Shown here piece by piece: positions 1,718 through 34,482 of a DNA stretch of 34,935 bases (position 1 is the first letter of the stretch; each line of letters starts with the position of its first letter). The notes under the pieces were generated by a model. It was given only the letters and a program-made list of their open reading frames with translations, did no database searches and was not told the DNA's origin. Both the position numbers and the translations under genes were made by a program. Origin of the DNA: Rhodothermales bacterium (lineage in GTDB: Bacteria; Bacteroidota; Rhodothermia; Rhodothermales; DATKEJ01); the NCBI GenBank assembly GCA_035512315.1, contig DATKEJ010000404.1, positions 1 to 34,935 of the forward strand, written 5' to 3'.

Positions 1718-1780
1718 CGTCGAACGTTTTAACGTCTGAACGTCTTAACGTCTGAACGTCTGAAGGTCTGAACGTTAGAC
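1718..1780. repeat. Octamer tandem array, unit CGTCTGAA (about 8 units, 5 near-perfect at 1733-1772)
   Basis: Read directly: cgtctgaa cgtcttaa cgtctgaa cgtctgaa ggtctgaa. A degenerate AGACTGAG x3 follows at 1798-1821. Confidence 0.9.
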
Positions 1781-1873
1781 GTCGATGGATAAGCAAAAGA
1801 CTGAGAGACTGACGGACTGCATCGTGCCACGCGAGGGCGGTAAAGTTCTCAGTATGAACTCAGCAGTCAAATT

Positions 1874-1904
1874 CTGCTGTCTGCTGTCTGCTGTCTGCTG
1901 CTGT
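1874..1904. repeat. Heptamer tandem array (CTGCTGT) x4.4
   Basis: Read directly. It ends 2 nt from the stop codon (1907-1909) of the minus-strand SDR gene. Confidence 0.9.
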
Positions 1905-1906
1905 GG

Positions 1907-2941
1907 CTAGTACTTGCCGTCCCTGACCTCAAAGTGCGTCGGTTTGTCGAGCAGAGCGCCTCCGCGCCGTACCCAGTCGGCCGTCCATCGCGCGACCTGG
2001 CGGAGGTCTACGCGAGGCTCCCCGAAAGTACTCACCGCAAACGAGGCGTCGTTGAGCAGCGCGGTTTCGGCCTCCTCACCCGAGAAGACGACCGGGCGGT
2101 CCATGCGCGAGCCGATCCGCGTCGCGAGTCCCCGTACGTCATAGATGCCCGGGCCCGTCAGGTTCAGGAGGGCCGCCGGACTCTCAGCGAGGTCGAGCGA
2201 GCGGATGATCACGTCGTTCGCATCCCCCTGCCAGATGCAGTTCAGATAGCCCGTGCTCAAATCGACCGGCAGGCCGTCCCGTATCCTCAGCGCAATGTCG
2301 ACGAGCACGCCGTACCGAAGCTCCACCGCGTAGTTCAGCCGCACGAGAACTATGGGCGTGCCGTTGGCGATGGACCAGTGCTCGAAAACGCGCTCGCGGC
2401 CGAGACACGACCAGGCGTATTCTCCGACGGGGCCGACCGCATCCGCCTCGGTCGAGCCGCCGTCGTCGGGCCGTGTGAAGGGATACACGTTGCCCGACGA
2501 AAGGGCGACGATTCGGGAGGACGGATACCGGCGCGATACCAGCGACGGGGTCAACGTGTTGACGGCCCAGGTCCGTCCGGGATTCTCGGCGGTCCCGAAC
2601 TTCCAGCCGACGAGGAAGATCACGTTGCCGGCGTCGGGAAGCTTTTCGACACTCCTCGGATCCGTCAGGTCGCAGGCGATCGTCTCCACGCCTTGCCGTT
2701 CGAGGTCCTTTCGCGACCCGGCATCCGAGAAGCGGCTGACGGCGACGACGCGCACATCCGAGCCCGCCGCCTTGACCGCACGCCGCGCACGGACGCACAG
2801 CGATGGGCCCATCTTGCCGCCGGCTCCGAGAATCAGAAGGATGCCGGAGAGAGATCCAATGAAGTCAACGAGTTGTTCCGAAGGATCGGTCAGGAGCCGG
2901 TCGAGCTCGCGTTCGGAGGATATGGTGTCGGGGAGGCGCAT
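1907..2941 (-). CDS. NAD(P)-dependent epimerase/dehydratase-family (extended SDR) protein, atypical active site
   Basis: 344 aa. Rossmann motif LILGAGGKMG. Ser149 and Tyr175 lie at extended-SDR spacing, but the Lys of YxxxK is Cys (YAWSC). Confidence 0.7.
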   Translation of the reverse strand: MRLPDTISSERELDRLLTDPSEQLVDFIGSLSGILLILGAGGKMGPSLCVRARRAVKAAGSDVRVVAVSRFSDAGSRKDLERQGVETIACDLTDPRSVEKLPDAGNVIFLVGWKFGTAENPGRTWAVNTLTPSLVSRRYPSSRIVALSSGNVYPFTRPDDGGSTEADAVGPVGEYAWSCLGRERVFEHWSIANGTPIVLVRLNYAVELRYGVLVDIALRIRDGLPVDLSTGYLNCIWQGDANDVIIRSLDLAESPAALLNLTGPGIYDVRGLATRIGSRMDRPVVFSGEEAETALLNDASFAVSTFGEPRVDLRQVARWTADWVRRGGALLDKPTHFEVRDGKY

Positions 2942-2955
2942 GCACTCTTGTTCGT

Positions 2956-2983
2956 GTCATCCCGGGCTTGACCCGGGATCCAG
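2956..2983. repeat. 28-bp hairpin element GTCATCCCGGGCTTGACCCGGGATCCAG (copy 1)
   Basis: 8-bp perfect stem ATCCCGGG/CCCGGGAT with loop CTTGA. A second copy lies at 29615-29642. Confidence 0.85.
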
Positions 2984-2984
2984 A

Positions 2985-3005
2985 TCGACGTTCGACGTTC
3001 GACGC
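2985..3005. repeat. Heptamer tandem array (TCGACGT) x3
   Basis: Read directly. Same family as 3131-3165 and 26223-26281. Confidence 0.85.
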
Positions 3006-3130
3006 AACCTAACCCGAAAGGTACTAACGAGGACGCAACTCTTTCGGAGTGGAATCGTGGGTTTGCCCCCCAGCGAGTCGTGTGCCGGGGTTTTCTCTCA
3101 CCGTTCTCGCTCGTTCGGGCCAGGCTGTTT

Positions 3131-3165
3131 GACGTTCGACGTTTGACGTTTGACGTTTGACGTAT
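3131..3165. repeat. Heptamer tandem array (GACGTTY) x5
   Basis: gacgttc gacgttt gacgttt gacgttt gacgtat. It ends 8 nt before the creatininase-family ATG. Confidence 0.9.
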
Positions 3166-3173: not shown

Positions 3174-3887
3174 ATGGAAACCGAGGAAGCACCGTCGAAG
3201 CCTTGGGGCGAGTACGCCCGGCTGCGCCCGCACGAAATCGCGGAAATCATGTCGCGCCATCCGATCGCCTACCTGCCGTGGGGGGCGATCGAGTGGCACA
3301 GTTACCATAATCCCGTCGGGCTCGACGGCTTCATCGCCGAGGCGCAGTGCAAGGCCCTCGCGCGCCGCAACGGAGGCCTCGTATTCCCCGTCGTCTTCGC
3401 CGGCACCGATACCATCAAGCCGTTCAAAGGCTTCAAGTACACGATCGAGCACGGCGCGGGCACCGTGGATGCGCTCTGCTCCGAATTCCTCGGCCAATTG
3501 GCGGAGGAGGGATTCACCACGATCGTGCTCATCACCGGGCATGCGGGCGGCGGACATACAGACGCCCTCGCGACAGCGGGCGGGCGTTTCCGAACGGCGA
3601 GGCCCGACGTTGGGCTGATCGTGTATGCATCGTTCGAGCCGATAAAGGACACGCATCCGATGAACCACGCCGCGACCGGCGAGACGTCGCTCCAGTTGTT
3701 CGTCGATCGGGAGACGGTCGACCTCGCGCTCGTGCCGGCCGGCGACCCTCCCACGCTCGACGACGACGGCGTCTGGGGCGACGACCCGCGGGCCGCATCC
3801 ATCGAAAAGGGGGAGGCCATCATGACGAAGTTCGTCGAAACGGTCTCTCCCGAAATCCAAAAGCTTCAAAACCGGCGAGGAGAATGA
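3174..3887 (+). CDS. Creatininase-family amidohydrolase
   Basis: ATG at 3174 is preferred over the listed TTG at 3150, which lies inside the GACGTTT array. Family metal-site pattern present: PWGAIEWHSYHNPVGLD, ITGHAGGGH, NHAATGETS. Confidence 0.8.
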   Translation: METEEAPSKPWGEYARLRPHEIAEIMSRHPIAYLPWGAIEWHSYHNPVGLDGFIAEAQCKALARRNGGLVFPVVFAGTDTIKPFKGFKYTIEHGAGTVDALCSEFLGQLAEEGFTTIVLITGHAGGGHTDALATAGGRFRTARPDVGLIVYASFEPIKDTHPMNHAATGETSLQLFVDRETVDLALVPAGDPPTLDDDGVWGDDPRAASIEKGEAIMTKFVETVSPEIQKLQNRRGE

Positions 3888-4843
3888 GATATCGGACTCT
3901 GGGAAGAACGGGTCTGCGGTGCAGCGAAATCGGTCTCGGTACCTGGGCGTTCGCGTCCCAGATCTATGGCACGGTCGACCGCGGCGATGCGTACAGGACC
4001 GTCGACCGCGCGCTCGACAGCGGCATTACGTTCTTCGACACCGCGCCGCTCTACGGCGATAAGGAACACGACGGGATATCCGAAAAGGTGTTGGGCAGGG
4101 CGCTCGGGGATGCCAAACGATCGGTCATCATCTCCACAAAGTTCGGGAGGTACTCGACCGACGGCGCGGCGCCGAATTTCCACGCGAAGAGGGCGTACGA
4201 GTCCGTCGAGGGCAGCCTCAGGCGACTCGGCCGCGACCATGTCGACGTGCTATTCTTTCACTCGCCATTCGGCCCGCAGGACATCCACGACGACGTCTGG
4301 GAGGCGCTCGACGACCTGAGAAGTCAGGGCAAGGTGCGCTTCCTGGGGCACTCGATTTCGATGTTTGAAGACACCGAAGGGATGGCGAGGCAGTGGGCGG
4401 CCGAGAGGAAGATCGACGTGATCCAGGTCGTCTACAGCCTGATGAATCGGGAGTCGACCGCGCTGATCCGCGACCTGGCCGACGAGGGAATCGGCATCGT
4501 GGCCCGCGAGTCCCTGGCGAACGGATTTCTGTCGGGCGCGATCACGAAGGAGACGGTTTTCCCCGAAGGCCACCTGAACTCCCGGTACTCGCGTGAGGAA
4601 ATTGCCGACCGCGTGGATTACGTCGACGCGCTGTCGTTTCTGGTGAGGGGTCCGGTCAAGTCCGTACCACAGGCGGCTTTCCGCTGGGTGCTCGACAATC
4701 GGGACGTGTCGCTGGTCCTGAGCGGGGCGAGCAGCGAGGATCAATTGGCGGAATGTGCTGCCGTGTCCGACATTCCGGGGTATTCCAAAGACGAATTGAG
4801 GAAGGCAGATGAGATACATGTGCGCGACTTCCAGGCGGCTTGA
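3884..4843 (+). CDS. Aldo/keto reductase
   Basis: The listed ORF 3347-4843 is trimmed to the in-frame ATG at 3884, giving MRYRTLGRTGLRCSEIGLGTW and FFDTAPLYG, a typical AKR N-terminus. ATGA overlap with the upstream stop codon. Confidence 0.85.
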   Translation: MRYRTLGRTGLRCSEIGLGTWAFASQIYGTVDRGDAYRTVDRALDSGITFFDTAPLYGDKEHDGISEKVLGRALGDAKRSVIISTKFGRYSTDGAAPNFHAKRAYESVEGSLRRLGRDHVDVLFFHSPFGPQDIHDDVWEALDDLRSQGKVRFLGHSISMFEDTEGMARQWAAERKIDVIQVVYSLMNRESTALIRDLADEGIGIVARESLANGFLSGAITKETVFPEGHLNSRYSREEIADRVDYVDALSFLVRGPVKSVPQAAFRWVLDNRDVSLVLSGASSEDQLAECAAVSDIPGYSKDELRKADEIHVRDFQAA

Positions 4844-5504
4844 AGGCGCCGTTCGGACGATCATTCTGTCGGCGTGCGCCGTTCTTGCGGTCCAGGCCGG
4901 ATTGCATGCTCAGGAGGTTTCCGTCGGCGTGCGGCTCAGTACGCTCGGCTTCGGCGCAGAGGCGGGCGTGAAGGTACTCGACCGGGCGGGTGTACGCGTC
5001 GGTCTGAACGCCCTGTCGCTGTCGGTCAACGCCGAGGAGGAAGGGAACGACTACGAGTTCGACATCGGCCTGTGGACGCAATCCCTTCTGGCGGACTTCT
5101 ACTTCTCGAGGATCGGTTTCCGCGCGACCGCAGGCGTGTTCGCCAACGGCAACGAGGTCGACATGACGGCCGAGTCGCAGAACGGGTTCGAACTCGGCGG
5201 CAACGTGTACCCACCGGATCAAGTAGGCACGGTCTCAGGGGGGATGGACTTCAACGACATCAACCCGTACGTGGGGCTTGGCCTCGACACGTCGTTCGGA
5301 AGGGATCGGGGCCTCGGTTTCGTAGCCGAGTTGGGAGCGCTGTTCCAAGGCTCTCCGAGGCTGACCTTGAGTGCGGACGGCCCGATAGCAGCCGACCCGG
5401 ACTTTCAGGCGGAGCTGGAGTCCGAACGCGAATCGATCGAAGACGACATGTCCGCTTACAGCGTGTACCCGGTCGTCGTGCTCGGGGTCAGCTACAGGTT
5501 CTGA
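4809..5504 (+). CDS. Outer-membrane beta-barrel protein
   Basis: Signal peptide (TIILSACAVLAVQAGLHA/QE), alternating beta-strand-like pattern, and a C-terminal GVSYRF ending in Phe. The start (4809 or 4818) overlaps the AKR 3' end. Confidence 0.6.
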   Translation: MRYMCATSRRLEGAVRTIILSACAVLAVQAGLHAQEVSVGVRLSTLGFGAEAGVKVLDRAGVRVGLNALSLSVNAEEEGNDYEFDIGLWTQSLLADFYFSRIGFRATAGVFANGNEVDMTAESQNGFELGGNVYPPDQVGTVSGGMDFNDINPYVGLGLDTSFGRDRGLGFVAELGALFQGSPRLTLSADGPIAADPDFQAELESERESIEDDMSAYSVYPVVVLGVSYRF

Positions 5505-5530
5505 CGTCAAACGTTAAATGTCGAACGTCG
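5503..5530. repeat. Degenerate ACGT-core octamer array
   Basis: gacgtcaa acgttaaa tgtcgaa cgtcgtg. Weak relative of the CGTCTGAA family, starting inside the OMP stop codon. Confidence 0.4.
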
Positions 5531-5558
5531 TGTCCTTCGAGGAGCGCAAGCAGACTCT

Positions 5559-5626
5559 GTAGGGGCAGGCCAGAGCCCAACGCATCCGATTCGCTTGGGG
5601 TGGCGGTGGGAGCGTCGGCCTGCCCG
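5559..5626 (+). repeat. Hairpin-bounded dispersed element, copy A (68 bp)
   Basis: Termini are GTAGGGGCAGGCCAGAGC and GAGCGTCGGCCTGCCCG. GGGCAGGCC and GGCCTGCCC form a 9-bp inverted repeat. Further copies lie at 10930-10996 and, inverted, at 20925-20993. Confidence 0.85.
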
Positions 5627-5664: not shown

Positions 5665-6489
5665 TCAAACCCCGTAAATATCCGTCCGCACGTCCTTCGC
5701 CGCCCGTTTGACGAGTCTCCGATTCGGTCCGTCGGCGTCGAGGTTGATGGCTGCGGAAACGATGTCCGGGCCCGCTTCGAGCGTCTGTGCGATGATCGAT
5801 CCCTCCGCGTCGAGGATGACCGTGGCGCCCATCCCGTCTTGTGTGCCATTGTGATTGTGCGGGTCGCGCATCCCGGAAGCGACCAACGGGAGGGCCGCAT
5901 CGACCGCCCGCGCCCGCAGGCGCGTGGTGAAATGCGGGCAGTCTGCGAGCGAGATCAGGTGTGGGAAGACGAGCAGATCCGCGCCCTTCCGAGCCAGGAG
6001 GGACGGAAGTTCGGGGTAGTTCAGATCCCAGCAGATGAAGATGCCGATCCGTCCGAAGTCCAGATCGAAGACCGGGACGTCGTTTCCCACAAGTGCATTC
6101 TGCTCGAGGCGGCAGATCTCGGGCTCGTGGATCTTTTCGTAGCGTCCGACGATGGAGCCCTCCCGGTCGATGGCGAGGGCGAGGTTCTGGCCGCCGGACT
6201 CGCGTCGCTCGATCAGCCCGATGACGACGTTGACGCCGAAGTCCCTCGCGATCCGGCAGGCGGCATCGGATGTAGGTCCGGGGATGGCCTCTGCGACGTC
6301 GAAGTAGGTGAAATCCGGATGGTCGTCCGGGTAGCAGAGCATAGCGACCGCCTCGGGGAGGACGACGAGGTCGGGTTTATCCCGTGCGGCCTTTTCCAGC
6401 ATGTCGAGGGCGTGCCGGCGGTTGTCGTCGGGCGACGCCGTACGAATTGACCAGAGCTGGACGGCTGCTATGTGAACCGGGGTCGGCAT
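5665..6489 (-). CDS. Carbon-nitrogen hydrolase (nitrilase superfamily)
   Basis: 274 aa. Glu-Lys-Cys triad contexts present: VVLPEAV, RYEKIH, IFICWDLNYPE. Confidence 0.85.
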   Translation of the reverse strand: MPTPVHIAAVQLWSIRTASPDDNRRHALDMLEKAARDKPDLVVLPEAVAMLCYPDDHPDFTYFDVAEAIPGPTSDAACRIARDFGVNVVIGLIERRESGGQNLALAIDREGSIVGRYEKIHEPEICRLEQNALVGNDVPVFDLDFGRIGIFICWDLNYPELPSLLARKGADLLVFPHLISLADCPHFTTRLRARAVDAALPLVASGMRDPHNHNGTQDGMGATVILDAEGSIIAQTLEAGPDIVSAAINLDADGPNRRLVKRAAKDVRTDIYGV

Positions 6490-6532: not shown

Positions 6533-6560
6533 AAACGCTAAACGCTAAACGCGAAACGTG
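6533..6560. repeat. Heptamer tandem array (AAACGCT) x4
   Basis: aaacgct aaacgct aaacgcg aaacgtg. The same family occurs at 10888-10920 and, inverted, at 34455-34482. Confidence 0.9.
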
Positions 6561-6618
6561 CCCCTTCCGCAGGGTTGCGCCAGCGGTGCGGTCGTTTCGG
6601 CGCTGTGTTGTTTTTCGC

Positions 6619-6642
6619 GCAAAGACGCGAAGACGCAAAGGT
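6619..6642. repeat. Octamer tandem array (GCRAAGAC) x3
   Basis: gcaaagac gcgaagac gcaaaggt. A related array lies at 34365-34388. Confidence 0.8.
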
Positions 6643-6668
6643 CCCGGTCAAAATGCGGCCGTCATTTT

Positions 6669-7079
6669 TCATTTTTCAATTGTAGCGAATTCCTCAAGCG
6701 AGACCGCCACGTCAGGGAAGACCCGGGCGATTTTGCCGTCACCCGTGACGAGGTGGAGGCCCATGGCATCGGCGAGTGCGACGAACTCGCAGTCGTAGCT
6801 AGAGTGGCCGGTGCGCTCGACGAGTTTCAGTACGGAGGCCGTAGCGACTGTGTACTCCTTTCCGCGCATGGATGCCTCCGCCTTATCCGCGATCCAGACT
6901 GCATCCGAGTAGCCTATATGGCCTGCGAGCATGTATTGGCGCAGCACGCTCCTGAATTCCGAGCGCCAGAGCACCGGCGCCGCCCAGTCGGGATCCCGTC
7001 GCCGGGCGCCGAGAGCGGCGGGCGTGCGCGGGCCCCTGATCCAGAATGCCGCGATCACGTCCGTATCGACCACGATCAT
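6669..7079 (-). CDS. vapC: Type II toxin, PIN-domain VapC
   Basis: 136 aa. PIN acidic residues in VVDTDV, WRSEF, SSYDCEF and LVTGDG. ATGA overlap with the upstream antitoxin gene. Confidence 0.85.
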   Translation of the reverse strand: MIVVDTDVIAAFWIRGPRTPAALGARRRDPDWAAPVLWRSEFRSVLRQYMLAGHIGYSDAVWIADKAEASMRGKEYTVATASVLKLVERTGHSSYDCEFVALADAMGLHLVTGDGKIARVFPDVAVSLEEFATIEK

Positions 7080-7342
7080 CGGTCAGCCGATTCGAGCGGA
7101 TCCTCATACCGCCTTCCCGCCCGCTTGCCCGCAGCGGTGAGATCCGGAAGCGGCTCCCCGAACCGGGCGTGTACGGCCTCGGCCTCCGCGATGAGGACGC
7201 CGGCGTCGACGGGTTGCGGGAGGAGAGTTTCTTCGAGGAGGGTGACGATTTCGCTGCTCATGGACCGGCGATGCCGGGAGGCGCGCTCGCGGAGTCGCTC
7301 GTAGAGGCGGTCGGGGATGTCGCGGACGGTGAGAGCAGGCAT
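7076..7342 (-). CDS. Type II antitoxin, ribbon-helix-helix (VapB/FitA-like)
   Basis: 88 aa. The N-terminus MPALTVRDIPDRLYERLRERA is RHH-like. The gene is immediately upstream of vapC and overlaps it by 4 nt. Confidence 0.75.
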   Translation of the reverse strand: MPALTVRDIPDRLYERLRERASRHRRSMSSEIVTLLEETLLPQPVDAGVLIAEAEAVHARFGEPLPDLTAAGKRAGRRYEDPLESADR

Positions 7343-7416: not shown

Positions 7417-9339
7417 CTACTCCGGACCCCGCACTCCGGACTCCGGACGGTTCACTCCTGCTCCCACATGCCTCCCCTGAAACCGCCTCGTCCACACTTC
7501 GACAACGACGCTGATGGCCACGGCAAGCCCGGCGGCCACGGCATTCAGGGGCGAGCCCTCAAACCACGGGGTGGGGAAGGAGAGAAGCAGCAACACGATG
7601 CCGATTCCAAAAGAGAGGCGTCCCGCCAGGCGATAGGACCGGAGCCCGCGGAGGTCCACGTGCTCGGCCTCCGCGTAGGCGGGCGTTCGGAGATCGCGCT
7701 CGAGGCTCTCGATGCTTTCTTTGAACGCCCCTCCGCGCTTGTCGAAGAGCGCTGATCCGAAGAAGAAAGCCGTCGCCGCGCCGATGCCCACGAACGTGTT
7801 CAGCTCGTAACGGGTGAAAGCGACGCCGGCAATCGAAAAGTTGATGTCGCTGAAAAGATCCCCGATCGTCACCGGCAGCCCCAGAGCGACGTTCGCGATC
7901 ACGTCCGCTACGAGGACGCTCACCACCCCGCCTCCGAAAGCCACCATGCCCGACCACCAGGGCGTCCGCGTGAAAATCAGACCCAACATCACCGGGATGA
8001 ACATCGACGGGCTGTAAAGCGAGCTCGCCCTGAGGTATACCGAAAAGGCGCCGCCGTACTTCTCCATGTTGAGCGCGATCCAGATGGCGATCATGCTCAG
8101 CACTAGTACGCTGCTCTTCCCGACGATGAGCTGGATTCGTTCGGTCGGATCCTTCTTCTTGAAATGCTTCACGAGCGGCTTATAGACGTCCTTCGTCAGT
8201 ACCGCCGCCACCCAGTTGAACGTGGTGTCGACCGAGCTCATCGTGGCGGCGAAGATGGCTGCGACCATGATCCCGAGCATCCCGTGCGGAAGAACCGCGA
8301 GCGCGAGTGTCACGAACGCCGCTTCGGTCGGCTCCGACAGCTCGGGCCACATGGAGACGATGTCGGGGAAAAGGATCGGGGTGATCATGACCGGGATGAT
8401 CCACGTCAATGGCAGAACAATGCTCAGCCAGGCGCACCAGGAGGCCATCTTCTTCGTATCTCTCTCATCGGGCACGCTGTAGTATCGCTGCGCAATGTGC
8501 CAGTTAACGTTGTATCCGAGGATGATGTTGATGAAGTAGGCGATCCAGAAGCTCCGGGGTTGGTCGGTGATTTCGATGCTGTAGTAGCCATCAGGAGCAT
8601 CCGTGATCATCCGGCCTACGCCGTCCATGATGCTTCCGTCTCCCAGGAAGCTCAGGGCCACCGGCAGCATGATGAGGGAGATCAGAAAAAGGATTACGAA
8701 CTGGAGTGCATCCGTGACCATCACGGCCCACAGTCCCCCCACCGTCGTGTAGATCGCGATGACGAATCCGGTGACGATCAAGACCAGCTGGAATCCGTTG
8801 ACCTGAGCGACGCCCAGGTCGAACGTCTGCGAACTGAAACCCAGCGCCGTCGAGACGAAGATCGACAGCATGTAGATCATGATCCCGATGATCAGCACAT
8901 TGGGGATCACGGACAGGACTGTGTAGAAATACGTCGTTCCCGGCGAATACCTGCGCTGGAGGAACTGCATCGGCGTGTCGATGCGCGTGCGCCTCCAGAG
9001 CTTCCCGTAAATGAAGTAGCCGAGGTAGTAGGCCGGGAACGCCATCGAGAAGAGGATGAAGGCCGCACCGCCGTTCCGGTACGTGAAGCCCGACGCACCG
9101 ACGAACATGAACGCCGAGAAACCCGAAACGAAGAGCGAAACGGCCGAAAGCCCCCAGGGAATGTATCCGCCGCCCTTGAAGTAGTCCGCCGTCTCCTTGT
9201 TGAACCGCGAGACGTACATGCCGACGCCGATCACCATCAGCATATATAAGCCGACGACGGCGTAGTCGATTTCGTTTAGATGGTGGAGCTCAGGCAAGGG
9301 AATGTTCCAAGTTCCAGGTTCCACGTTCCAGGTTTCCAA
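7417..9339 (-). CDS. Sodium:solute symporter family (SSF) transporter, candidate rhamnose uptake
   Basis: 640 aa with many hydrophobic helices and an SSF-like N-terminus (DYAVVGLYMLMVIGVGMYVSRF, TADYFKGGG). The first 14 codons (METWNVEPGTWNIP) are encoded by an STR array; an in-frame TTG at 9297 is an alternative start. The substrate is inferred only from adjacency to rhaI. Confidence 0.8.
   Translation of the reverse strand: METWNVEPGTWNIPLPELHHLNEIDYAVVGLYMLMVIGVGMYVSRFNKETADYFKGGGYIPWGLSAVSLFVSGFSAFMFVGASGFTYRNGGAAFILFSMAFPAYYLGYFIYGKLWRRTRIDTPMQFLQRRYSPGTTYFYTVLSVIPNVLIIGIMIYMLSIFVSTALGFSSQTFDLGVAQVNGFQLVLIVTGFVIAIYTTVGGLWAVMVTDALQFVILFLISLIMLPVALSFLGDGSIMDGVGRMITDAPDGYYSIEITDQPRSFWIAYFINIILGYNVNWHIAQRYYSVPDERDTKKMASWCAWLSIVLPLTWIIPVMITPILFPDIVSMWPELSEPTEAAFVTLALAVLPHGMLGIMVAAIFAATMSSVDTTFNWVAAVLTKDVYKPLVKHFKKKDPTERIQLIVGKSSVLVLSMIAIWIALNMEKYGGAFSVYLRASSLYSPSMFIPVMLGLIFTRTPWWSGMVAFGGGVVSVLVADVIANVALGLPVTIGDLFSDINFSIAGVAFTRYELNTFVGIGAATAFFFGSALFDKRGGAFKESIESLERDLRTPAYAEAEHVDLRGLRSYRLAGRLSFGIGIVLLLLSFPTPWFEGSPLNAVAAGLAVAISVVVEVWTRRFQGRHVGAGVNRPESGVRGPE
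7420..7449. repeat. Heptamer tandem array (CTCCGGA) x4, one variant unit CCCCGCA
   Basis: Read directly. On the minus strand it encodes the last 9 codons (PESGVRGPE) of the SSF transporter ORF. Confidence 0.85.
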
Positions 9340-9367
9340 GTCGGAGGTTCCAGGTTCCAGGTTTCCA
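9303..9367. repeat. Heptamer tandem array (GGTTCCA) about x9, the reverse complement of the AACCTGG family
   Basis: tgttcca agttcca ggttcca cgttcca ggtttcca agtcgga ggttcca ggttcca ggtttcca. Confidence 0.9.
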
Positions 9368-9483: not shown

Positions 9484-9486
9484 AAA

Positions 9487-21113: not shown

Positions 21114-21117
21114 CAGA

Positions 21118-27889: not shown

Positions 27890-28006
27890 AAATATGGTGG
27901 AGAGGTGGATCTATAGACAATTGATGGGTCTGCCTACGAAACTACCGGCACCGGGATGCGAGGATCACTACAATTTGCCCTGCATCCTCGGTGCGACCGT
28001 TTTAGA

Positions 28007-28042
28007 GGGAGTGCGTCGCACTTAAAGGTGCGACGCTCTCCC
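28007..28042. promoter_or_regulatory. 15-bp inverted repeat GGGAGTGCGTCGCAC-N6-GTGCGACGCTCTCCC (14/15 complementary)
   Basis: Read directly. Lies 41 nt upstream of the OsmC-like ATG. A third GTGCGAC half-site is at 27991. Confidence 0.4.
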
Positions 28043-28083
28043 CTTAACGCCGTCACACACATTCAGCGAAAGACGATATCAAT

Positions 28084-28602
28084 ATGAGCCAGCCGGCAAG
28101 GATTAAGCACTTATTTGAACGTACCCGAAAGGCGTTGCGAGCACGACCCTTCATAGGGTTGAAAACTGCGACTTCTCACTCGCGCATTGTCGACGGGACG
28201 ACGTGCGAAGTGACTGAGGGCAAATGGACGCTGGTCGTCGACATGTCGGAAAAGGCGGGTGGCAGCGGGCGGGGACCCGACTCGGGAGTGTTTGGGAGAG
28301 CCGCATTTGGAAGCTGTACGGCTATTAGCTATGCGCAGTGGGCGGCCATTTTGGATGTCACGATTCAATCGCTCGAGGTGACGGTGGAAACGGACGCGGA
28401 CAACTCAGGATATTATGATGTCGCCGATGTGCCGGCCGGTTACTTACGTGCTCGCACACTCGTCAGGATCGAAAGTCCCGATCCCGTGGAGAAAGTCATC
28501 GAAGTGCTCGACAAAGGTGACAAACACAGCCCCTACCACGACCTGTGGAGCCGGGCATTCGAGATCGAGCGAACCGTAATCCTCAACGGAAACGAGATTT
28601 GA
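28084..28602 (+). CDS. OsmC/Ohr-family protein (second conserved Cys apparently replaced by Ser)
   Basis: 172 aa. GGSGRGPDSG and FGSCTAISYAQW. The usual C-terminal CPY context reads KHSPYHD. Confidence 0.65.
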   Translation: MSQPARIKHLFERTRKALRARPFIGLKTATSHSRIVDGTTCEVTEGKWTLVVDMSEKAGGSGRGPDSGVFGRAAFGSCTAISYAQWAAILDVTIQSLEVTVETDADNSGYYDVADVPAGYLRARTLVRIESPDPVEKVIEVLDKGDKHSPYHDLWSRAFEIERTVILNGNEI

Positions 28603-28603
28603 C

Positions 28604-29431
28604 ATGGATGAGAGACTGCAAAGACGAGTACAGCGCTACGGTTGGGACAAGGCCGCGGCTCATTACGAACTGCACTGGCGCAAACAACTCGAACCCGCCC
28701 AGAGACTCCTGCTGGAGATGGCCGGGATACGGGCCGGGGAGCACGTTATTGATATTGCCTGCGGCACCGGATTGACGACCTTTCCCGCGGCCGAAGCAGC
28801 CGGCCGCAACGGCCGTGTTCTTGGCACTGACATTTCGGACAGGATGGTCGAGGCGGCCTCGGCACGCGCTGCGTCGAACGGTGTAGAGCATGCCGAATTC
28901 GCCAGAATGGATGCAGAGTCCCTCGACGTTCCCGACCAGAGTTTTGACGTCGCGCTGTGCGGCCTTGGTCTTATGTACGCCCCGTTTCCCTCGGTGGCCG
29001 TTTCCGAGATGTTTCGCGTGCTGAAAGCCGGCGGCCGGGCCTCCGCCGCTGTTTGGGGACGCCGCGACAAGTGCGGCTGGGCCGAGATCTTCCCGATCGT
29101 TGATGCACGCGTATCGACCGAGGTATGCCCCATGTTCTTCCAACTGGGAACGGGGGACGTTCTGAGTGCAGTCTTCAACGAGGCGGGATTCACCGACGTC
29201 CGTTCGGAGCGGATTTCGGTCGAACTCCATTACGAGACGGATGATGACGCCTGCGGTGCTGCCTTCGCAGGTGGTCCTGTTGCGCTAGCCTATTCTCGTT
29301 TTGACGAGCCGACGCGTAAGGAAGCCTTCGAAGAGTACCTCGCGTCGATTCGTCCTTACCGGGATGGCGACGGATACAAGATCCCCGGGGAGTTCGTGAT
29401 CGTCTCGGGCCACCGAGATAACGATTCGTGA
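28604..29431 (+). CDS. Class I SAM-dependent methyltransferase
   Basis: 275 aa. Motif I VIDIACGTG; post-I LGTDIS; FDVALCGLGLMY. Starts 1 nt after the OsmC-like stop. Confidence 0.8.
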   Translation: MDERLQRRVQRYGWDKAAAHYELHWRKQLEPAQRLLLEMAGIRAGEHVIDIACGTGLTTFPAAEAAGRNGRVLGTDISDRMVEAASARAASNGVEHAEFARMDAESLDVPDQSFDVALCGLGLMYAPFPSVAVSEMFRVLKAGGRASAAVWGRRDKCGWAEIFPIVDARVSTEVCPMFFQLGTGDVLSAVFNEAGFTDVRSERISVELHYETDDDACGAAFAGGPVALAYSRFDEPTRKEAFEEYLASIRPYRDGDGYKIPGEFVIVSGHRDNDS

Positions 29432-29591
29432 ACACCGTCATTTGGGCGCGCCGCCATTTCGGACGTCTCCAGACGATGCATCTCAAACGAGGTCATGAGC
29501 GCTGTAGATCGCGAAAATGTACATCGAATTCGTCAAGTTCACTCCCGCTACTTCGTAGTCTTGTGATCAGTTCGGGCGAATCCCCGTGACT

Positions 29592-29642
29592 GTTATCCCG
29601 GACTTCATCGGGCCGTCATCCCGGACTTGATCCGGGATCCAG
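29592..29642. repeat. Hairpin element copy 2 (29615-29642, GTCATCCCGGACTTGATCCGGGATCCAG) preceded by a degenerate half copy
   Basis: 8-bp perfect stem ATCCCGGA/TCCGGGAT with loop CTTGA. The half copy GTTATCCCGGACTTCATCGGG is at 29592-29612. Confidence 0.85.
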
Positions 29643-29683
29643 CGTCGGATCATCCGGCGAACACGAGATATCTTGCGACGACT

Positions 29684-31753
29684 ATGCCGATGCGAAGCGC
29701 GAGCCTTGCAGCATGCCTGCTGATTGCTGTGACCGCGGCCACACCGGGGTTGCTTTCCGCACAGACGGGCGCCGACCGGATTCGTCTGAATCAGATCGGC
29801 TTTTATCCCACTGCGCCCAAGATAGCGATCGTCGTCGATGCCCCGGAAGGTCCGTTCTTCGTAACGACGCCGCAGCTCGACGACACCCTCTTCACGGGTG
29901 CCCTCTCCGGCTCCCGGACCTGGAGCACGTCCGCCGACCCTGTTCGCCGCGCTGATTTCAGCGCATTGCAGGCGGAGGGCGAGTTTGTCGTTACGGTTCC
30001 CGGGATTGGCGCGTCGCACGTTTTCGAGATCGGCCGCGGAGTTCATGACTTGGTGTCACGTGCAGGCTTGAAGAGTTTCTATTTCCAGCGCGCATCATCG
30101 GGGTTGGATGAACAGCATGCCGGGAAATGGCATCGGGCGGCCGGTCATCCGGACACGGAGGTACTCGTCCACGGATCAGCTGCAACGACGCAGCGGCCTG
30201 CAGAGACCAAGATTTCATCGCCTCGCGGCTGGTATGACGCGGGCGATTACAACAAATACATCGTCAATTCCGGCATTACGGTAGGAACGCTGCTGTCGCT
30301 TTACGAGGACTATCCGGAACACCTCGACACGCTGGATCTCGACATTCCTGAAAGTGGCAACGGGCTCCCGGATTTGCTGGATGAGGTCCTCTGGAATATC
30401 CGGTGGATGCTGACCATGCAGGATCCCGACGACGGAGGCGTCTACCACAAGCTCACGACGGCGAACTTCGAATCATTCGTGATGCCCGACAAGGCAACGT
30501 CGAGCCGATACGTTGTTCAGAAGAGTACGCCGGCTGCGCTCAATTTTGCCGCCGTTGCCGCTCAATCGGCTCGCGTGTTCTCGCGTTTCGGGACCGAACT
30601 TCCCGGGCTGGCGGATTCGTGCACCGTCGCAGCGCGCTCAGCCTGGAGTTGGGCCCGACGGAACCCGGAGATCCGCTACAGCCAGTCCGCCCTGAACGCC
30701 GCATTCAACCCTGACATTAACACGGGCGAGTACGGGGACTCCAGTTTCAGGGACGAATTCGCGTGGGCGGCGGCGGAGCTTTTCGCGACGACCCGGGAAG
30801 ACAGTTTCCTGACTGCCGTCGACGTCTTCTTTACGCCCAACTACACCGTCCCCTATTGGGGTCGTGTGGAGACGCTCGGGTACTACACGCTTTTCCGGAT
30901 GCGCAACGAGTTTACGGGGACCGGTGCGCAGTACGCCGCCCAGGCCCTCTCGAAAGTCATGGCTCTCGCTTCGGGCGTTAACGCGAATGCTTCCGGCACA
31001 GCCTACGGGGTCGCCATGGGAAAGACGAGCGACGATTTCGTTTGGGGAAGCAACGCCGTGGCCTCAAACCAGGGGATTGCGCTCATATACGGATACCGCG
31101 CGAGCGGAGACAGAAAGTACATCGAGATGGCGCTCGCCAATCTGGATTACCTGCTCGGCAGGAATGCCACGTCATACTCGTTCGTGACCGGGCACGGAGA
31201 CAAGACGCCGAGATTCCCGCACCACCGGCAGTCGGGATCGGACGGCATACCGGATCCCGTCCCGGGCCTCCTCGTCGGTGGCCCGAATCCCGACCGGCAG
31301 GACGGCTGCGTCTATCCATCGACACATCCGGCCGAGTCCTATACCGACACGGAGTGCTCATATGCCTCGAATGAGAACGCCATCAACTGGAGTGCGGCTT
31401 TTGCCTACCTCGTGACGGCGATCGAGGCACTCAAATCGGATGCCGGTTTTGCGTCGGTTGCCGTCGAGCCGCCGGAGCACGACTTCGGGGCGGCTCCTGC
31501 GATAAAAAGTGTCTTTCCGAACCCTTTACGCGAGCAAGCGACGATCTCGTTCTCGGTAGATCGACCGCAGCGCGTCCGAGTCGATGTTACCGATCAGCTC
31601 GGAAGGAGGGTGGGTGTCGCTCGCCAGATGGAGGTCCGCTCGGGCTCAAATCAAACCGTTGTTGACGGCCAATCGCTCCCCCCAGGTGTCTACTTTGTCA
31701 CACTCACAGGAGAGTGGTTTCGTGAAAGCTTCAAGTTCGTGCAGCTGAGATAA
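29684..31753 (+). CDS. Glycoside hydrolase family 9 endoglucanase with N-terminal Ig-like (CelD_N) domain and T9SS C-terminal sorting domain
   Basis: Start moved to ATG 29684 (MPMRSASLAACLLIAVTAATPGLLSAQ signal peptide). IRLNQIGFYP, GWYDAGDYNKY, FPHHRQS and YASNENAINWSAAFAY. The CTD VFPNPLREQATISFSV to FKFVQLR spans 31511-31750. Confidence 0.9.
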   Translation: MPMRSASLAACLLIAVTAATPGLLSAQTGADRIRLNQIGFYPTAPKIAIVVDAPEGPFFVTTPQLDDTLFTGALSGSRTWSTSADPVRRADFSALQAEGEFVVTVPGIGASHVFEIGRGVHDLVSRAGLKSFYFQRASSGLDEQHAGKWHRAAGHPDTEVLVHGSAATTQRPAETKISSPRGWYDAGDYNKYIVNSGITVGTLLSLYEDYPEHLDTLDLDIPESGNGLPDLLDEVLWNIRWMLTMQDPDDGGVYHKLTTANFESFVMPDKATSSRYVVQKSTPAALNFAAVAAQSARVFSRFGTELPGLADSCTVAARSAWSWARRNPEIRYSQSALNAAFNPDINTGEYGDSSFRDEFAWAAAELFATTREDSFLTAVDVFFTPNYTVPYWGRVETLGYYTLFRMRNEFTGTGAQYAAQALSKVMALASGVNANASGTAYGVAMGKTSDDFVWGSNAVASNQGIALIYGYRASGDRKYIEMALANLDYLLGRNATSYSFVTGHGDKTPRFPHHRQSGSDGIPDPVPGLLVGGPNPDRQDGCVYPSTHPAESYTDTECSYASNENAINWSAAFAYLVTAIEALKSDAGFASVAVEPPEHDFGAAPAIKSVFPNPLREQATISFSVDRPQRVRVDVTDQLGRRVGVARQMEVRSGSNQTVVDGQSLPPGVYFVTLTGEWFRESFKFVQLR

Positions 31754-31959
31754 CGTCGTCGTCGTCTTGCAACTGTAGGGATGAATCGGCCGCTACGTTG
31801 TGCATCTTACCCAGCAACCGGCGAACTTGAAACTCAGAAGGTCTCAAGCGGTAAACGGTGCTCAAGTGTCGGAAAAGGCGCGTCGCGTCCACCCCAGGCC
31901 CGGCACATGATTTGCATGTCGGACCAAGGCCATAGAATCAGCAAGCAAGTACCTGCGCC

Positions 31960-33570
31960 ATGTTGACACCGGACCTCGATCAACTGGTTTTCACGGCATA
32001 TCCCTTACTGGATGCCACCTTCGCGAGGGCGCTAGCTCGCCCCGAGCCGCTTGATCACTGGGTTCTAATTGTAGTTGTCGCTCTCGCCTCTGCGTTTCTG
32101 CTTCTCAGGCTAGGAAGTGCGGTGAGCCGGCGCAATTGGAAAGACAGCCTGCTGGATCAGAAGCGAGAGGCCAGGCGACGCACCAGGCAACTGGCACACA
32201 TTTTTTCAAGCCGCGAGTCTTCTTCGCCGCCGACGTCTACGATGGCCCCCACTGAAACGGCGCCTGCCGAGACGTTCGACCTCCGGACTCTCGACGTTCA
32301 GGATCGACTCAACCGTGCTCGCGCCGAAGCTATTCACGTGCTCATGCTGATCGACCGGCTTCTCGAGTCGACACGAACATATGACGGGATGATGAAACCG
32401 GACCTCTCCGAACGGGCGCTCACGGCGACGGTTGGAGAGGCATTCGGGCGTTTTGATGCGGGCGATATGCTGCCGCACATGTTGTTCGATGCTTGCTCGA
32501 CGGATGACGAAGGTGAATCCGAACTCCCTGTCTTGGACGACACCGGCGCGTCAGGCGACACGGCGACTGCGATGGAGGGTGACATCTCACGCCCACTCAT
32601 CCTTGTCGTCACCGAAAGTGCCGAGGTCCGATCGCTCGTCGACACACCTCGGTGGTCGAGATACCGGATTGCGGAGTCGAGCAGCGGTCACAACGGGCTC
32701 CAAATGGCCAGAAGGCTTCAACCCGAGCTCATCATCAGCAACGCCCTCGTGGGCGGGATGGAGGAAGTGGCGTTCAGTCGCAAGGTCAAGGCCGACAAGG
32801 ACCTCCAGCATATTCCCATCGTGCTTCTCGCCGCACTTGACTCGCCGGATGCGCGCGTCGAGGCCATTCAAGCCGGCGTCGATGCCTTCGTGACGCAGCC
32901 CTTCGGTGACAATGAGATCGCCGCAGTTGTTGACAACCTGATCAAGTCGAGGAGAGCGCTGCGCCAGCTGTACAGCCGGCAAGTCCTTCTGAAGCCGTAC
33001 GACGTCGTGGTCGCCTCGTCGGACTGCTCGTTTGTCGAGAGGGTCTACGAAGTTGTCAACCAGCATCTTGGAGACGCCGGCTTCACGGTCGGGCAGCTCG
33101 CTCGCGAAGTGGGTGTGAGTGAAAGTCGCCTCAAGCGAAAGCTGCGGTCACTCATTGACGAAACTCCTGTTGCACTTATCAGAAGGACCAGGCTGGAACG
33201 GGCCGCCGACCTGCTCAGACAGGGCTCGGGGAATGTTAGTGACGCTGCGTTTGCGACGGGCTTCAGTAACCTCAGCTACTTTGCAAAGTGCTTTCGGAAG
33301 CGCTGGGGGCTGACGCCGTCTCAGTTCCTGGCAAGTGAGACGTCGGCGCAGAGGAACGGGCGAGCTTCCGGGCAAGCCTGGCGACAGGAGTGGACGCAGG
33401 CCCCCCTGCGCCCACCTCCCGAAGCAACACAATACACGATAGTAGGATCTATCGGTTCGGCGAGGGCCGTCCCACGACGAAACGCACCCGCGAGCGACCT
33501 GGAGGAGTCCTCGCCCAACAACACTGAGGCCAGTTATGGAAAGCCCCCTCGCTTAACTGAGAGATACTAA
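31960..33570 (+). CDS. Membrane-anchored pseudo-receiver / AraC-type HTH regulator (decayed hybrid two-component system)
   Basis: 536 aa. One TM helix (residues 34-52), a DHp-helix-like remnant (residues about 120-165), a receiver-like domain (residues 212-330, nt 32593-32949) with all conserved phospho-site residues replaced, and an AraC HTH (nt about 33031-33333, FSNLSYFAKCFRKRWGLTPSQF). Confidence 0.75.
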   Translation: MLTPDLDQLVFTAYPLLDATFARALARPEPLDHWVLIVVVALASAFLLLRLGSAVSRRNWKDSLLDQKREARRRTRQLAHIFSSRESSSPPTSTMAPTETAPAETFDLRTLDVQDRLNRARAEAIHVLMLIDRLLESTRTYDGMMKPDLSERALTATVGEAFGRFDAGDMLPHMLFDACSTDDEGESELPVLDDTGASGDTATAMEGDISRPLILVVTESAEVRSLVDTPRWSRYRIAESSSGHNGLQMARRLQPELIISNALVGGMEEVAFSRKVKADKDLQHIPIVLLAALDSPDARVEAIQAGVDAFVTQPFGDNEIAAVVDNLIKSRRALRQLYSRQVLLKPYDVVVASSDCSFVERVYEVVNQHLGDAGFTVGQLAREVGVSESRLKRKLRSLIDETPVALIRRTRLERAADLLRQGSGNVSDAAFATGFSNLSYFAKCFRKRWGLTPSQFLASETSAQRNGRASGQAWRQEWTQAPLRPPPEATQYTIVGSIGSARAVPRRNAPASDLEESSPNNTEASYGKPPRLTERY

Positions 33571-33706
33571 ACAGAAACGGGGAACGCCCGTTACCCCAAT
33601 TCGACCAACCTTTGACATTCTCGGGTCGATCTGATGCGCGCGCATAGACGACTGGTCGAAAAGTGTCATCCGCTCGAAATGCTCGAGAAGCACCTCGGCG
33701 AGCCGG

Positions 33707-34318
33707 TTACAGGTCTGTCGCCGTTTTAGCGAATGTCTGATCGATGAGGGTGCACCAGATGTGGATGATGATGAGGTGCACCTCCTGGATTCGCGCCGTG
33801 GAGGTTGAAGGAACGCGAATCTGATAGTCGGCCGGAAGCGAGTTCAGACCGCCTCCGCCGGTAAGGGCGATCGAGCCGATCCCAGCTTTTCGAGCAGCTG
33901 CGAGGCCGCGCAGGACGTTTTCAGACTGCCCCGAGGTCGTCAGACCAACCGCAACGTCCCCCGGTCTGGCCAGCGCCTCGACCTGTCTGGCGAACAGCTC
34001 CGCAAACCCGAAGTCGTTGGCGATGCACGTTACCAGGCCCGGGCTCGCCGGGAGACTGACTGCCGCCATCGGCCGCCGCGTGAACTGGAAACGGCCCACC
34101 AGCTCACCGACGAAATGATCGGCCTGGGTCGCGCTGCCGCCATTGCCGAATGCCAGAATCTTGCCGCCCGATGACAGGCCCCGGATCAGCACTTCGCCGG
34201 TCGACTGAATCTGATCGCCGAGCGCGTCGCGACACAACCGGATTGTCTCGACGTGTGCGTCGAACTGGGCCTGGATGTTGTCGCGGGAGTTTCTCACACC
34301 TCGTTCCTCAGGAAGCAT
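33707..34318 (-). CDS. gmhA: SIS-domain D-sedoheptulose-7-phosphate isomerase-like protein
   Basis: 203 aa. FGNGGSATQADHFVGELVGRF, CIANDFGFAELFARQVEAL, TTSGQSENV and RIQEVH. Confidence 0.75.
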   Translation of the reverse strand: MLPEERGVRNSRDNIQAQFDAHVETIRLCRDALGDQIQSTGEVLIRGLSSGGKILAFGNGGSATQADHFVGELVGRFQFTRRPMAAVSLPASPGLVTCIANDFGFAELFARQVEALARPGDVAVGLTTSGQSENVLRGLAAARKAGIGSIALTGGGGLNSLPADYQIRVPSTSTARIQEVHLIIIHIWCTLIDQTFAKTATDL

Positions 34319-34364
34319 TTCGGATTTTACCGTTCAGCGTTTATCGTTTCTTGTTTTGTTCTCT

Positions 34365-34388
34365 CGCAAAGGCGCAAAGGTGCGAAGG
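34365..34388. repeat. Octamer tandem array (CGCAAAGG) x3
   Basis: cgcaaagg cgcaaagg tgcgaagg. Related to 6619-6642. Confidence 0.8.
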
Positions 34389-34454
34389 GGATTGGCAGTG
34401 GTCTTCCCGCATTCGTCTCTGACCGCGGACAAACTCGTGCCAGTGCCCGCAGGG

Positions 34455-34482
34455 GCGTTTAGCGTTTAGCGTTTAGCGTTTC
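34455..34482. repeat. Heptamer tandem array (GCGTTTA) x4, the reverse complement of the AAACGCT family
   Basis: Read directly. It contains the ROK gene stop codon (34473-34475) and the last three sense codons (V, K, R). Confidence 0.9.

Follow-up and report, generated by a model that had tools for sequence, protein, structure and literature searches.

Heptanucleotide tandem arrays at the edges of open reading frames in a contig of an uncultured Rhodothermales bacterium

What are the short tandem arrays that recur between the genes of an uncultured Rhodothermales bacterium, and by what process are they made and kept? The stretch analysed here, called the window below, is a complete contig of this bacterium (DATKEJ010000404.1 in GenBank assembly GCA_035512315.1; 34,935 nucleotides), and all counts for this genome come from that one 35-kb contig. 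The arrays consist of head-to-tail units of 7 or 8 nt, and most of them lie at the edge of an open reading frame (ORF). We conclude that they are of the same kind as the known heptanucleotide long simple-sequence repeats (LSSRs); a new kind of element is not established. With slightly better than even confidence, we read them as heptanucleotide LSSRs, together with derived octanucleotide ones, that are driven by slippage, renew themselves and are confined to ORF edges by selection. The gene model of the window was built from ORFs, position-specific GC content and Pfam matches, and the gene models at loci outside the window come from a crude caller that combines ORFs with the GC content of third codon positions. 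Coding sequence makes up 88.6% of the window, which leaves 3,985 non-coding bases (11.4%).

Tandem Repeats Finder (TRF) reports 24 arrays in the window, 18 with period 7 and 6 with period 8, at copy numbers from 2.4 to 8.4 (Table 1). Every array listed in a preliminary description of this DNA is recovered within a few bases, and two short ones, built from AGACTGAC and TCATTTT, are added to that list. Higher-order periods of 14, 21, 24 and 29 nt are present inside arrays. We counted exact tandem duplications for each period and compared them to 100 dinucleotide-preserving shuffles of the window. Period 7 gives 18 duplications where 2.6 are expected, and those with at least three copies number six against none in the shuffles; for period 8, the counts are 4 and 0.8. 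Periods 4 and 5 show no excess over the shuffles, and periods 9 to 12 have no exact tandem duplications in the window. Period 6 is also in excess (24 versus 9.1), which we tentatively attribute to two-codon repeats in genes.

The arrays are largely restricted to intergenic DNA: 22 of the 24 lie within or at the edge of non-coding sequence (binomial P = 4e-19), and together they take up 16% of it. The preliminary description is confirmed as to the existence of the arrays and their strong intergenic bias. Array length clusters near four units (27-32 nt). By their excess length, their depletion from coding DNA and their copy-number changes in whole units, the arrays are heptanucleotide LSSRs.

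The position of the arrays within the gaps is far from random. Fifteen of 22 arrays lie no more than 7 nt from a start or stop codon, whereas random placement of each array in the gap that holds it predicts 2.7 (P < 5e-6). Stops account for 11 of these edge arrays and starts for 4. The preliminary description had the arrays filling most intergenic gaps. Of the 21 gaps longer than 50 bp, 13 do hold at least one, in agreement with its tally of 13 in roughly 20, and eight are array-free; but the arrays crowd the start and stop codons and do not simply fill the space. In other genomes, 35% of 237 arrays fall within 7 nt of an ORF edge versus 12.5% expected.

In three genes, encoding a PIN toxin, glycogen phosphorylase (GlgP) and a ROK protein, the array begins inside the ORF and supplies its stop. 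In the sense orientation, the end of the ORF and the array read gaaaaaTGA AAAATGA for PIN, aacgtcTGA ACGTCTGA ACGTCT for GlgP, and aaacgcTAA ACGCTAA ACGCTAA for ROK. Of the last 12 bases of the ORF, stop included, those in phase with the array number 11, 11 and 10 for PIN, GlgP and ROK, respectively. GlgP has the same length as its homologues despite the array-borne stop (it ends in KPLNV, and the homologues in KPLVI or KPLKI). To judge from their sequence, these three arrays are stop-codon-spanning duplications that leave the protein intact, and the two-copy TCATTTT array looks like such a duplication at an early stage. The sense strand of the SSF transporter gene reads (CCGGAGT)n through its final ten codons. 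A stop-bearing orientation on the sense strand is not preferred after stops in general (12 versus 15). On the start side, the longest-ORF TTG start (3150) of a creatininase-family gene falls inside an array (3127-3163). Besides the array at the FGGY kinase gene, the three start-side arrays end 3-10 nt before the start codon, and therefore leave no room for a Shine-Dalgarno sequence.

Close relatives were used to follow the arrays over time. The nearest relatives of the L-rhamnose isomerase in the window are found in Rhodothermales metagenome-assembled genomes (MAGs) at 94, 84 and 83% identity, and that of the aldolase/dehydrogenase fusion is in a Rhodothermales MAG at 69%. These matches place the host, an uncultured bacterium, in this order and not among the cyanobacteria, in agreement with the preliminary description; the presence of type IX secretion system (T9SS) sorting domains (Por_Secre_tail, in 29627-31753 and 15975-16271) and a GC content of about 0.60 agree. 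GlgP was dropped as a taxonomic marker: its best matches are scattered across phyla, and a 79% relative (L396) is a different, array-free organism.

Arrays stand at corresponding sites in four independent assemblies, L273 (ENA), L274 (Logan), and L401 and L275 (both JGI). The AAACGCT array upstream of the isomerase promoter has 6 units in the window, 8 in L273 (94% isomerase identity) and 9 in L401; the spacer is otherwise about 90% identical, and the indels responsible measure exactly 14 and 21 nt. In each of the four lineages with sequence at this point, down to 83% protein identity, an array follows the isomerase stop at a distance of 3 nt. In L275 (83%), the unit of this array has drifted from GTTCCAG to GTGCWGS, and that of the array before the SSF start from AACCTGG to CACYTGG. 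Arrays thus persist at one site for long periods while the unit sequence drifts, and whole-unit indels, higher-order periods and a two-copy proto-array are all observed. L274 and L276 (83-84%) carry neither of the two kinase-isomerase arrays, nor the element resembling a miniature inverted-repeat transposable element (MITE) that is described below. Among more distant Rhodothermales, three arrays were counted over 21 kb of one genome and none in another; the distribution of arrays in the order is patchy.

Upstream of the isomerase gene, the block 10771-10870 is conserved in L273, L274, L275, L276 and L401, with or without arrays. Its pattern is …ACTTACTCA…GTTCGTTAC-N-TTACCCCG-N-AACGATAAATTC…TTTCTTTGC, and it is probably the operator and Bacteroidota-type promoter of the rhamnose cluster. 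A 20-mer from the operator matched one contig, of 1.4 kb, in the JGI metagenomes. Since this conserved promoter/operator separates the AAACGCT array at 10883-10919 from the isomerase start, the array lies outside the isomerase leader. In L275, a different array, (TTTTGAA)x3.4, is located upstream of the isomerase gene (564-587). In Nostoc PCC 7120, this heptamer has been reported to recur upstream of recF and other genes (bioRxiv 10.1101/2022.06.06.494920); given our control searches, the sharing is probably a coincidence.

The preliminary description noted that unit families recur at distant loci and in both orientations, which is correct, and treated several of the units as unrelated, which is not: they collapse into a few groups. 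The RAACGNN group comprises nine arrays, with units GACGTTC, GACGTTT, the octamers ACGTCTGA and AGACGTTC, and AAACGCT with its variants AAACGAG and GAACGGT, all of which fit the consensus on one strand. A second group (CCWGGTT/CCGGRGT) holds six arrays, in which AACCTGG and its variant AACCCGG grade into CCGGACC and CTCCGGA. The third group, CGCAAAGR, has two arrays. Units containing a 4-nt palindrome, as restriction or methylation sites would have, occur in 6 of 12 families, versus about 36-40% expected; the palindromes were counted by eye and the difference is not significant.

To define polarity, we took for each array the strand that turns its 5' side to the nearest ORF and noted the orientation of the unit on it. 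Eight of the nine RAACGNN arrays in the window share one orientation, all three AACCTGG arrays share the orientation CCAGGTT, and the CCAGGTT-like arrays of the window and of a 74% Rhodothermales relative (L399, three arrays) agree in 6 of 6 cases, though these statistics rest on small groups. The rule amounts to an inverted arrangement of arrays at opposite gap edges. All nine GACGTTC arrays of a Gemmatimonadales MAG obey the same rule. Across 20 genome-and-family groups from other phyla, 45 of 52 arrays have the majority orientation, versus 37.5 expected (P = 0.002). Pooled over phyla, the orientation of GACGTTC relative to genes follows no universal rule; because the direction differs between genomes for one unit, polarity is not a property of the unit. 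The data are suggestive of a polarity rule within genome and family. Rehm et al. (PMC4692102) described that GGGAATC and GGGGAYT repeats lie near the ORF by their 5' side, whatever the orientation of the ORF. Both the ORF-edge position and the strand polarity of heptamer repeats have thus been reported before and are not new here.

Some arrays have a characteristic neighbour. A MITE-like element of about 85 nt, also resembling a REPIN, is found three times in the 35 kb (5556-5625, 10927-11000 and, in reverse, 20916-21004), and again, with flanking arrays, in L273 (about 1330-1420) and L401 (about 380-450). Its ends are inverted, (C)TGTAGGGGCAGGCC ... GGCCTGCCC, and 24 nt are identical between two copies. 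A search of the JGI metagenome collection for exact copies of the 22-mer core found none. At three sites, the left end of this element has an RAACGNN array at a distance of 0-30 nt, and there may be a fourth, degenerate copy behind the array at 6559. The AAACGCT array at 6533-6558 recurs, together with 17 nt of flanking sequence, at 10903-10935. No target-site duplications were seen; one gap is fully palindromic, and most have no inverted pairs.

Arrays of the same units are found far outside this order. Exact (GACGTTC)n and exact (AACCTGG)n were each found at over 110 loci spread over many phyla, and single MAGs can hold dozens. The idea of a repeat vocabulary shared across phyla was rejected, as none of those loci combines families of the window and control heptamers are just as common in IMG/VR. 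There, two composition-matched control heptamers form arrays at 2 and 5 loci, and the units from the window at 0 and 4. Since control heptamers form arrays equally often, the units of the window are not universally special. Each of the other genomes uses a different set of units, and period 7 predominates in them by a wide margin even without the searched unit.

We measured density as period-7/8 arrays with a TRF score of at least 40. It amounts to 0.46 per kb in the window, 0.02 per kb in 80 unrelated loci and 0.7 per kb in an Okeania cyanobacterium. Array-rich non-cyanobacterial genomes include the Bacteroidota MAG LejiaD_53_15 (L239), an Ardenticatenaceae MAG (L252), Rhodothermales SGMAG-46 (L194), the Spartobacteria MAG JAYVPW01 and the Gemmatimonadales MAG CAWDVJ01. 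Some of these genomes combine several families at a locus, and others have one unit in dozens of copies.

A generator tied to the period and not to the sequence, as the preliminary description suggested, fits the indels of 14 and 21 nt, the predominance of period 7 with unrelated units elsewhere, and the equal frequency of control heptamers. Its further suggestion of slippage is reasonable but not new; slippage of the polymerase at a 7-nt register was proposed for heptanucleotide repeats by Mrazek 2007, as cited in PMC4679880 and PMC4692102. Replication slippage at a register of about 7 nt, which many bacterial replisomes seem to favour, would create the arrays and renew them, and loops of about 7 nt probably also escape mismatch repair. 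An insertion of 7 or 8 nt shifts the frame, so selection would purge arrays from ORFs. The duplications that survive would be those outside an ORF, or those spanning a stop or start codon with the protein intact. Deletion of unconstrained spacer would then leave self-renewing arrays pressed to the ORF boundaries. Related units at distant loci would imply copying between loci, perhaps by ectopic conversion, template switching or hitch-hiking with a MITE-like element; the joint recurrence of the AAACGCT array and the MITE-like end at two sites is a hint that bears on it. Any effect on expression would be secondary.

Several observations weigh against slippage as the whole explanation. Three to four unit groups recur at up to nine loci in 35 kb, which independent slippage fails to explain, and the ORF-facing polarity within genome and family has no explanation under slippage. 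Mere tolerance would predict a looser spacing than the 0-7 nt seen in gaps of 150-400 nt, and the length distribution has a mode near four units instead of a steady fall-off. Selection for the presence of an array could account for its retention at a single site in lineages that are 83% identical. In reporter assays in Nostoc, the deletion of heptamer repeats changes expression (bioRxiv 10.1101/2022.06.06.494920). The evidence for this genome also comes from a single contig. Because the recurrence of related units, the polarity and the length clustering are unexplained by slippage, a functional reading stays alive.

Such a reading, which we think unlikely, holds that the arrays are cis-acting platforms at both ends of genes, where a protein would read single-stranded nucleic acid at intervals of about 7 nt. 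This protein could be a cold-shock-domain or S1-type protein with an oligonucleotide-binding (OB) fold, or a DNA-binding factor, with the arrays acting as 5'-leader or 3'-trailer elements. The footprint of a cold-shock domain is about 7 nt. The distances from the codons (0-10 nt for starts, 0-7 nt for stops), the clustering of lengths around four units, the consistent polarity relative to the ORF and the retention of position while the unit drifts are all in line with a platform.

It also speaks for this reading that the arrays, as single strands, fold no better than shuffles, save for the palindrome-containing CCGGA types; an Rfam search gave no match for them. GGG is absent from every unit on both strands, and there are no G-tracts; because of this, and because the single strands are essentially unstructured, the arrays are not G-quadruplex-forming. 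A role at transcript ends and starts of translation would be in keeping with the number of hairpin-plus-T terminators in the window, which does not exceed the shuffled expectation (19 versus about 27), and with the missing room for Shine-Dalgarno sequences at array-flanked starts. Sigma-70 promoters in the window are likewise at or below the shuffled expectation. MacGregor made a similar proposal for TAACTGA repeats, naming S1, Csp and CsrA (PMC4679880), and the altered reporter output after repeat deletion in Nostoc (bioRxiv 10.1101/2022.06.06.494920) points the same way.

On the other side, the coexistence of several unit groups would demand either a reader that ignores sequence or several readers. 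The AAACGCT array at 10883-10919, upstream of the promoter/operator, is outside the leader of the isomerase gene; the upstream arrays are absent from two relatives in which the operon shows no visible change; copy number varies freely; and eight gaps hold no array. A bolder version of this idea, in which the arrays are functional punctuation at both ends of ORFs, read by an OB-fold single-strand-binding protein (cold-shock or S1) whose footprint sets the period, seems to us quite improbable. The same holds for its corollaries, namely that the arrays stand in for Shine-Dalgarno leaders and intrinsic terminators and that polarity reflects directional loading. If true, the logic of such punctuation would also explain the heptamer repeats of cyanobacteria, Xanthomonas and Beggiatoaceae.

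A further alternative, for which we see little prospect, is that the arrays are arms of palindromic elements similar to MITEs or to bacterial interspersed mosaic elements (BIMEs). Edge arrays would pair into long hairpins, as RNA or as cruciforms, that serve as processing, stabilising or attenuating structures, and isolated arrays would be half-elements. The gap between the isomerase and SSF genes (9295-9490) is predicted to fold into one hairpin of 190 nt (dG -108.6 kcal/mol, z -9.5), because its two arrays are inverted. In L399, an inverted GGTTCAA/CCTTGAA pair fills the gap between a stop and the next start, and inverted GACGTTC pairs 60-150 nt apart occur in other phyla (L143, L155, L159). 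The polarity rule, being an inversion of arrays at opposite gap edges, fits hairpin arms as well, as do the RAACGNN arrays that adjoin the MITE-like element at three or four sites and the joint recurrence of array and MITE end. However, the isomerase-SSF gap is the sole one of its kind in the window, and an inverted pair from the same family is present in only 1 of the 13 array-bearing gaps. The pair in gap 2942-3149 is direct, most gaps mix families, and neither target-site duplications nor a transposase were seen. Compensatory covariation between the inverted arrays was ruled out in L275, where the orthologous gap is unfolded (z +0.5).

That the arrays are contingency loci, in which copy-number change switches the flanking genes by phase variation, is very improbable. 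Close relatives do differ in copy number by whole units, some arrays are in contact with start codons or within promoter regions, and heptamer repeats drive phase variation of the Haemophilus HMW adhesins (PMC12721329). The flanked genes are, however, housekeeping or catabolic ones (glycogen phosphorylase, the rhamnose operon, FdhD, an MFS transporter and a nitrilase-family gene). Eleven of the 15 edge arrays are at stops, where unit changes cannot switch an ORF, and the arrays that contain the stop keep the protein unchanged at any copy number. Rehm et al. (PMC4692102) and MacGregor (PMC4679880) also came to a negative conclusion for their repeats. We give practically no credence to an assembly or sequencing artefact: the contigs of relatives often end within arrays (L273 at 2908, for example), which indicates that arrays disturb short-read assembly, but arrays at matching sites in four independent assemblies from different archives, in consistent relation to the reading frames, speak against one.

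Table 1. Tandem arrays of 7- and 8-nt units, and one predicted hairpin, in the window.
Feature	Position	Strand	Context	Basis
(ACGTCTGA)x7.5, octamer derivative of GACGTTC family	1717-1783		36 nt upstream of start of gene 635-1681(-)	TRF
(AGACTGAC)x2.8, short octamer array	1798-1819		mid-gap	TRF
(TCTGCTG)x4	1873-1904		ends 3 nt from stop of gene 1907-2941(-)	
(GACGTTC)x2.9	2985-3004		divergent gap; immediately after REP-like hairpin 2956-2983	
(GACGTTT/C)x5.3	3127-3163		ends ~10 nt before likely ATG (3174) of creatininase-family gene	
(RAACGTC)x3.7, degenerate	5504-5529		starts at TGA of gene 4809-5504(+)	
(AAACGCT)x3.7	6533-6558		44 nt upstream of nitrilase-family gene 5665-6489(-)	
(CGCAAAGA)x2.9, octamer	6618-6640			
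(TCATTTT)x2.4, proto-array	6662-6678		duplicates last 7 nt of PIN gene including TGA	
(CTCCGGA)x4.3	7419-7448		last 10 codons of SSF transporter ORF; stop directly after	
(GTTCCAG)x8.4	9304-9368		ends ~6 nt upstream of SSF start; inverted relative to 9453-9483	
(AACCTGG)x4.4	9453-9483		3 nt past L-rhamnose isomerase stop; position kept in four lineages	
Isomerase-SSF gap, single long hairpin	9295-9490	-		fold prediction
(AAACGCT)x5.6	10883-10919		upstream of conserved promoter/operator of isomerase gene	
(AACCTGG)x5.1	11076-11111		degenerate last unit AACCTTG is TTG start of FGGY kinase gene	
(GTACTTG)x4.4	15586-15616		6 nt past FdhD stop	
(GTCCGGA)x3.9	19429-19455		5 nt past stop of molybdopterin oxidoreductase gene	
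(CCGGACC)x4	21087-21114		3 nt before called GTG start of MFS gene	
(AGACGTTC)x2.9	22365-22387		on sense strand takes in last two codons and TGA of glycogen phosphorylase	
(AGTCTGCA)x3.6	26149-26184		starts within TAG of BNR gene	
(GACGTTC/T)x8.4, 21-nt higher-order period	26223-26281		flush with stop of gene 26282-27889(-)	
(CGCAAAGG)x3, octamer	34365-34388			
(AGCGTTT)x3.9	34455-34481		sense strand ACGCTAA; contains TAA and last two codons of ROK gene	

The genes around the arrays include a rhamnose cluster (SSF transporter, L-rhamnose isomerase, FGGY kinase and an aldolase/dehydrogenase fusion), and also FdhD, a molybdopterin oxidoreductase, an MFS transporter, glycogen phosphorylase and a GH9 cellulase with a T9SS tail. 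Three gene boundaries were revised from homologues: the isomerase has 427 aa (9487-10770, minus strand), the SSF transporter starts with TTG at 9297, and GlgP has 820 aa. Three type II toxin-antitoxin pairs are encoded within 14 kb, a PIN toxin with a FitA-like ribbon-helix-helix antitoxin (6669-7342), BrnT/BrnA (19575-20118) and Phd/YefM with a PIN toxin (20226-20865); the gaps within and between the two adjacent pairs at 19.5-20.9 kb hold no arrays.

The 1.3-kb stretch 15580-16906 has a low coding density and a lower GC content (0.55). It holds several hairpins, a 98-aa ORF that consists of a T9SS sorting tail only (15975-16271) and a 26-nt tandem repeat of 2.2 copies (15751-15807), and it looks like the remains of a decayed gene for a secreted protein. 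Unlike the left two-thirds of the contig, the region 27890-33706 has four successive gaps of 136-206 nt without any array, and its GC content is slightly lower (0.58-0.60); it may be more recently acquired DNA, or its gaps may be full of regulatory sites. About 0.9 kb at 3888-4808 has no Pfam match, and overlapping ORFs compete there (3347-4843(+), 3966-4319(+) and 4250-4864(-)). A palindrome resembling repetitive extragenic palindromic (REP) sequences, GTCATCCCGGGCTTGACCCGGGATCCAG, occurs at 2956-2983 and 29615-29642 as a 93% identical pair; related hairpins are located at 15826-15850 and 22312-22338, in L274 (about 3395-3425) and in L275 (about 480-515). The copy at 29615-29642 overlaps the TTG at 29627 that was called as the start of the GH9 gene, which casts doubt on this call.

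Bacterial heptamer repeats were described in cyanobacteria in 1990, and what they do and how they arise has been open since. The contig adds a host at the level of a phylum (Rhodothermota), with a density similar to that of the richest cyanobacteria. It offers clean examples of arrays that supply stop codons, of whole-unit length changes in close relatives and of a fixed site with a drifting unit; together with the ORF-facing polarity, which is also seen in other phyla, these are constraints for any model of heptamer repeats. As the units here cannot form G-quadruplexes, G-quadruplex formation is removed as a general explanation.

Two kinds of repeat could be set aside, in agreement with the preliminary description. 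CRISPR arrays have repeats of 23-55 nt with unique spacers of comparable length, whereas the units here are 7-8 nt long and have no spacers. REP, BIME and REPIN elements are hairpin-forming imperfect palindromes of 20-40 nt, usually accompanied by a RAYT transposase in the genome, and the arrays are direct repeats without hairpins; distinct REP-like hairpins are, however, present in the gaps that hold arrays.

We take GACGTTY, AACCTGG, AAACGCT and the other units not to be units of the short tandemly repeated repetitive (STRR) sequences of cyanobacteria. Because units and phylum differ, the arrays are an analogue of STRR sequences and not a member; as the preliminary description held, the analogy is a fair one, with several types of heptamer unit per genome, in tandem, dispersed over many non-coding loci. 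STRR sequences go back to Mazel et al. 1990, as cited in PMC4692102. The novelty outside cyanobacteria that was implied at first does not stand, since heptamer arrays were already known in Xanthomonas, Beggiatoaceae, Bacteroidetes and Geobacter. To our reading of the literature searched, no description of such repeats in Rhodothermales was found.

In many bacteria, heptanucleotides are the most frequent class of long simple-sequence repeat according to Mrazek et al. 2007, as cited in PMC4679880 and PMC4692102. LSSRs are there described as tandem units of 5-11 nt, longer than expected by chance, mostly non-coding and found in larger, GC-richer genomes of non-pathogens. The arrays of the window resemble them in having tandem units of period 7, in being longer than composition predicts and in being mostly non-coding; unlike in typical LSSRs, their density is extreme (about 0.5-0.7 arrays per kb, about 20 times that of the 80 unrelated loci and similar to the Okeania cyanobacterium).

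TAACTGA direct repeats occur in marine Beggiatoaceae, some cyanobacteria and five Bacteroidetes (MacGregor 2015, PMC4679880). These repeats of 2-6 units share with the arrays a position a few nucleotides from starts without apparent Shine-Dalgarno sequences, 7-nt indels between strains and gaps with mixed families. They have a single dominant unit, mostly upstream of starts and forward, whereas stop-side arrays prevail here (11 versus 4), with other unit sequences. In Geobacter metallireducens, GGGACCG and MTYCTGA form 4-5 tandem heptamers at dozens of loci and are possible global regulatory sites (PMC2700814). Those elements are also intragenic and have a fixed copy number; the arrays in the window are excluded from genes and vary in copy number.

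The closest known anatomy is that of the Xanthomonas and Nostoc repeats GGGAATC/GGGGAYT, which are G-rich and G-quadruplex-forming (Rehm et al. 2015, PMC4692102). The arrays differ from these in having no G-tracts or folding, and in belonging to several families instead of one dominant unit. Both are dispersed, consist of about four units, lie 0-50 bp from ORFs, often overlap the stop and face the ORF with a fixed strand. Both also occupy the same gaps in related species with variable length and sequence, and no link to gene function was found for the repeats of Rehm et al.

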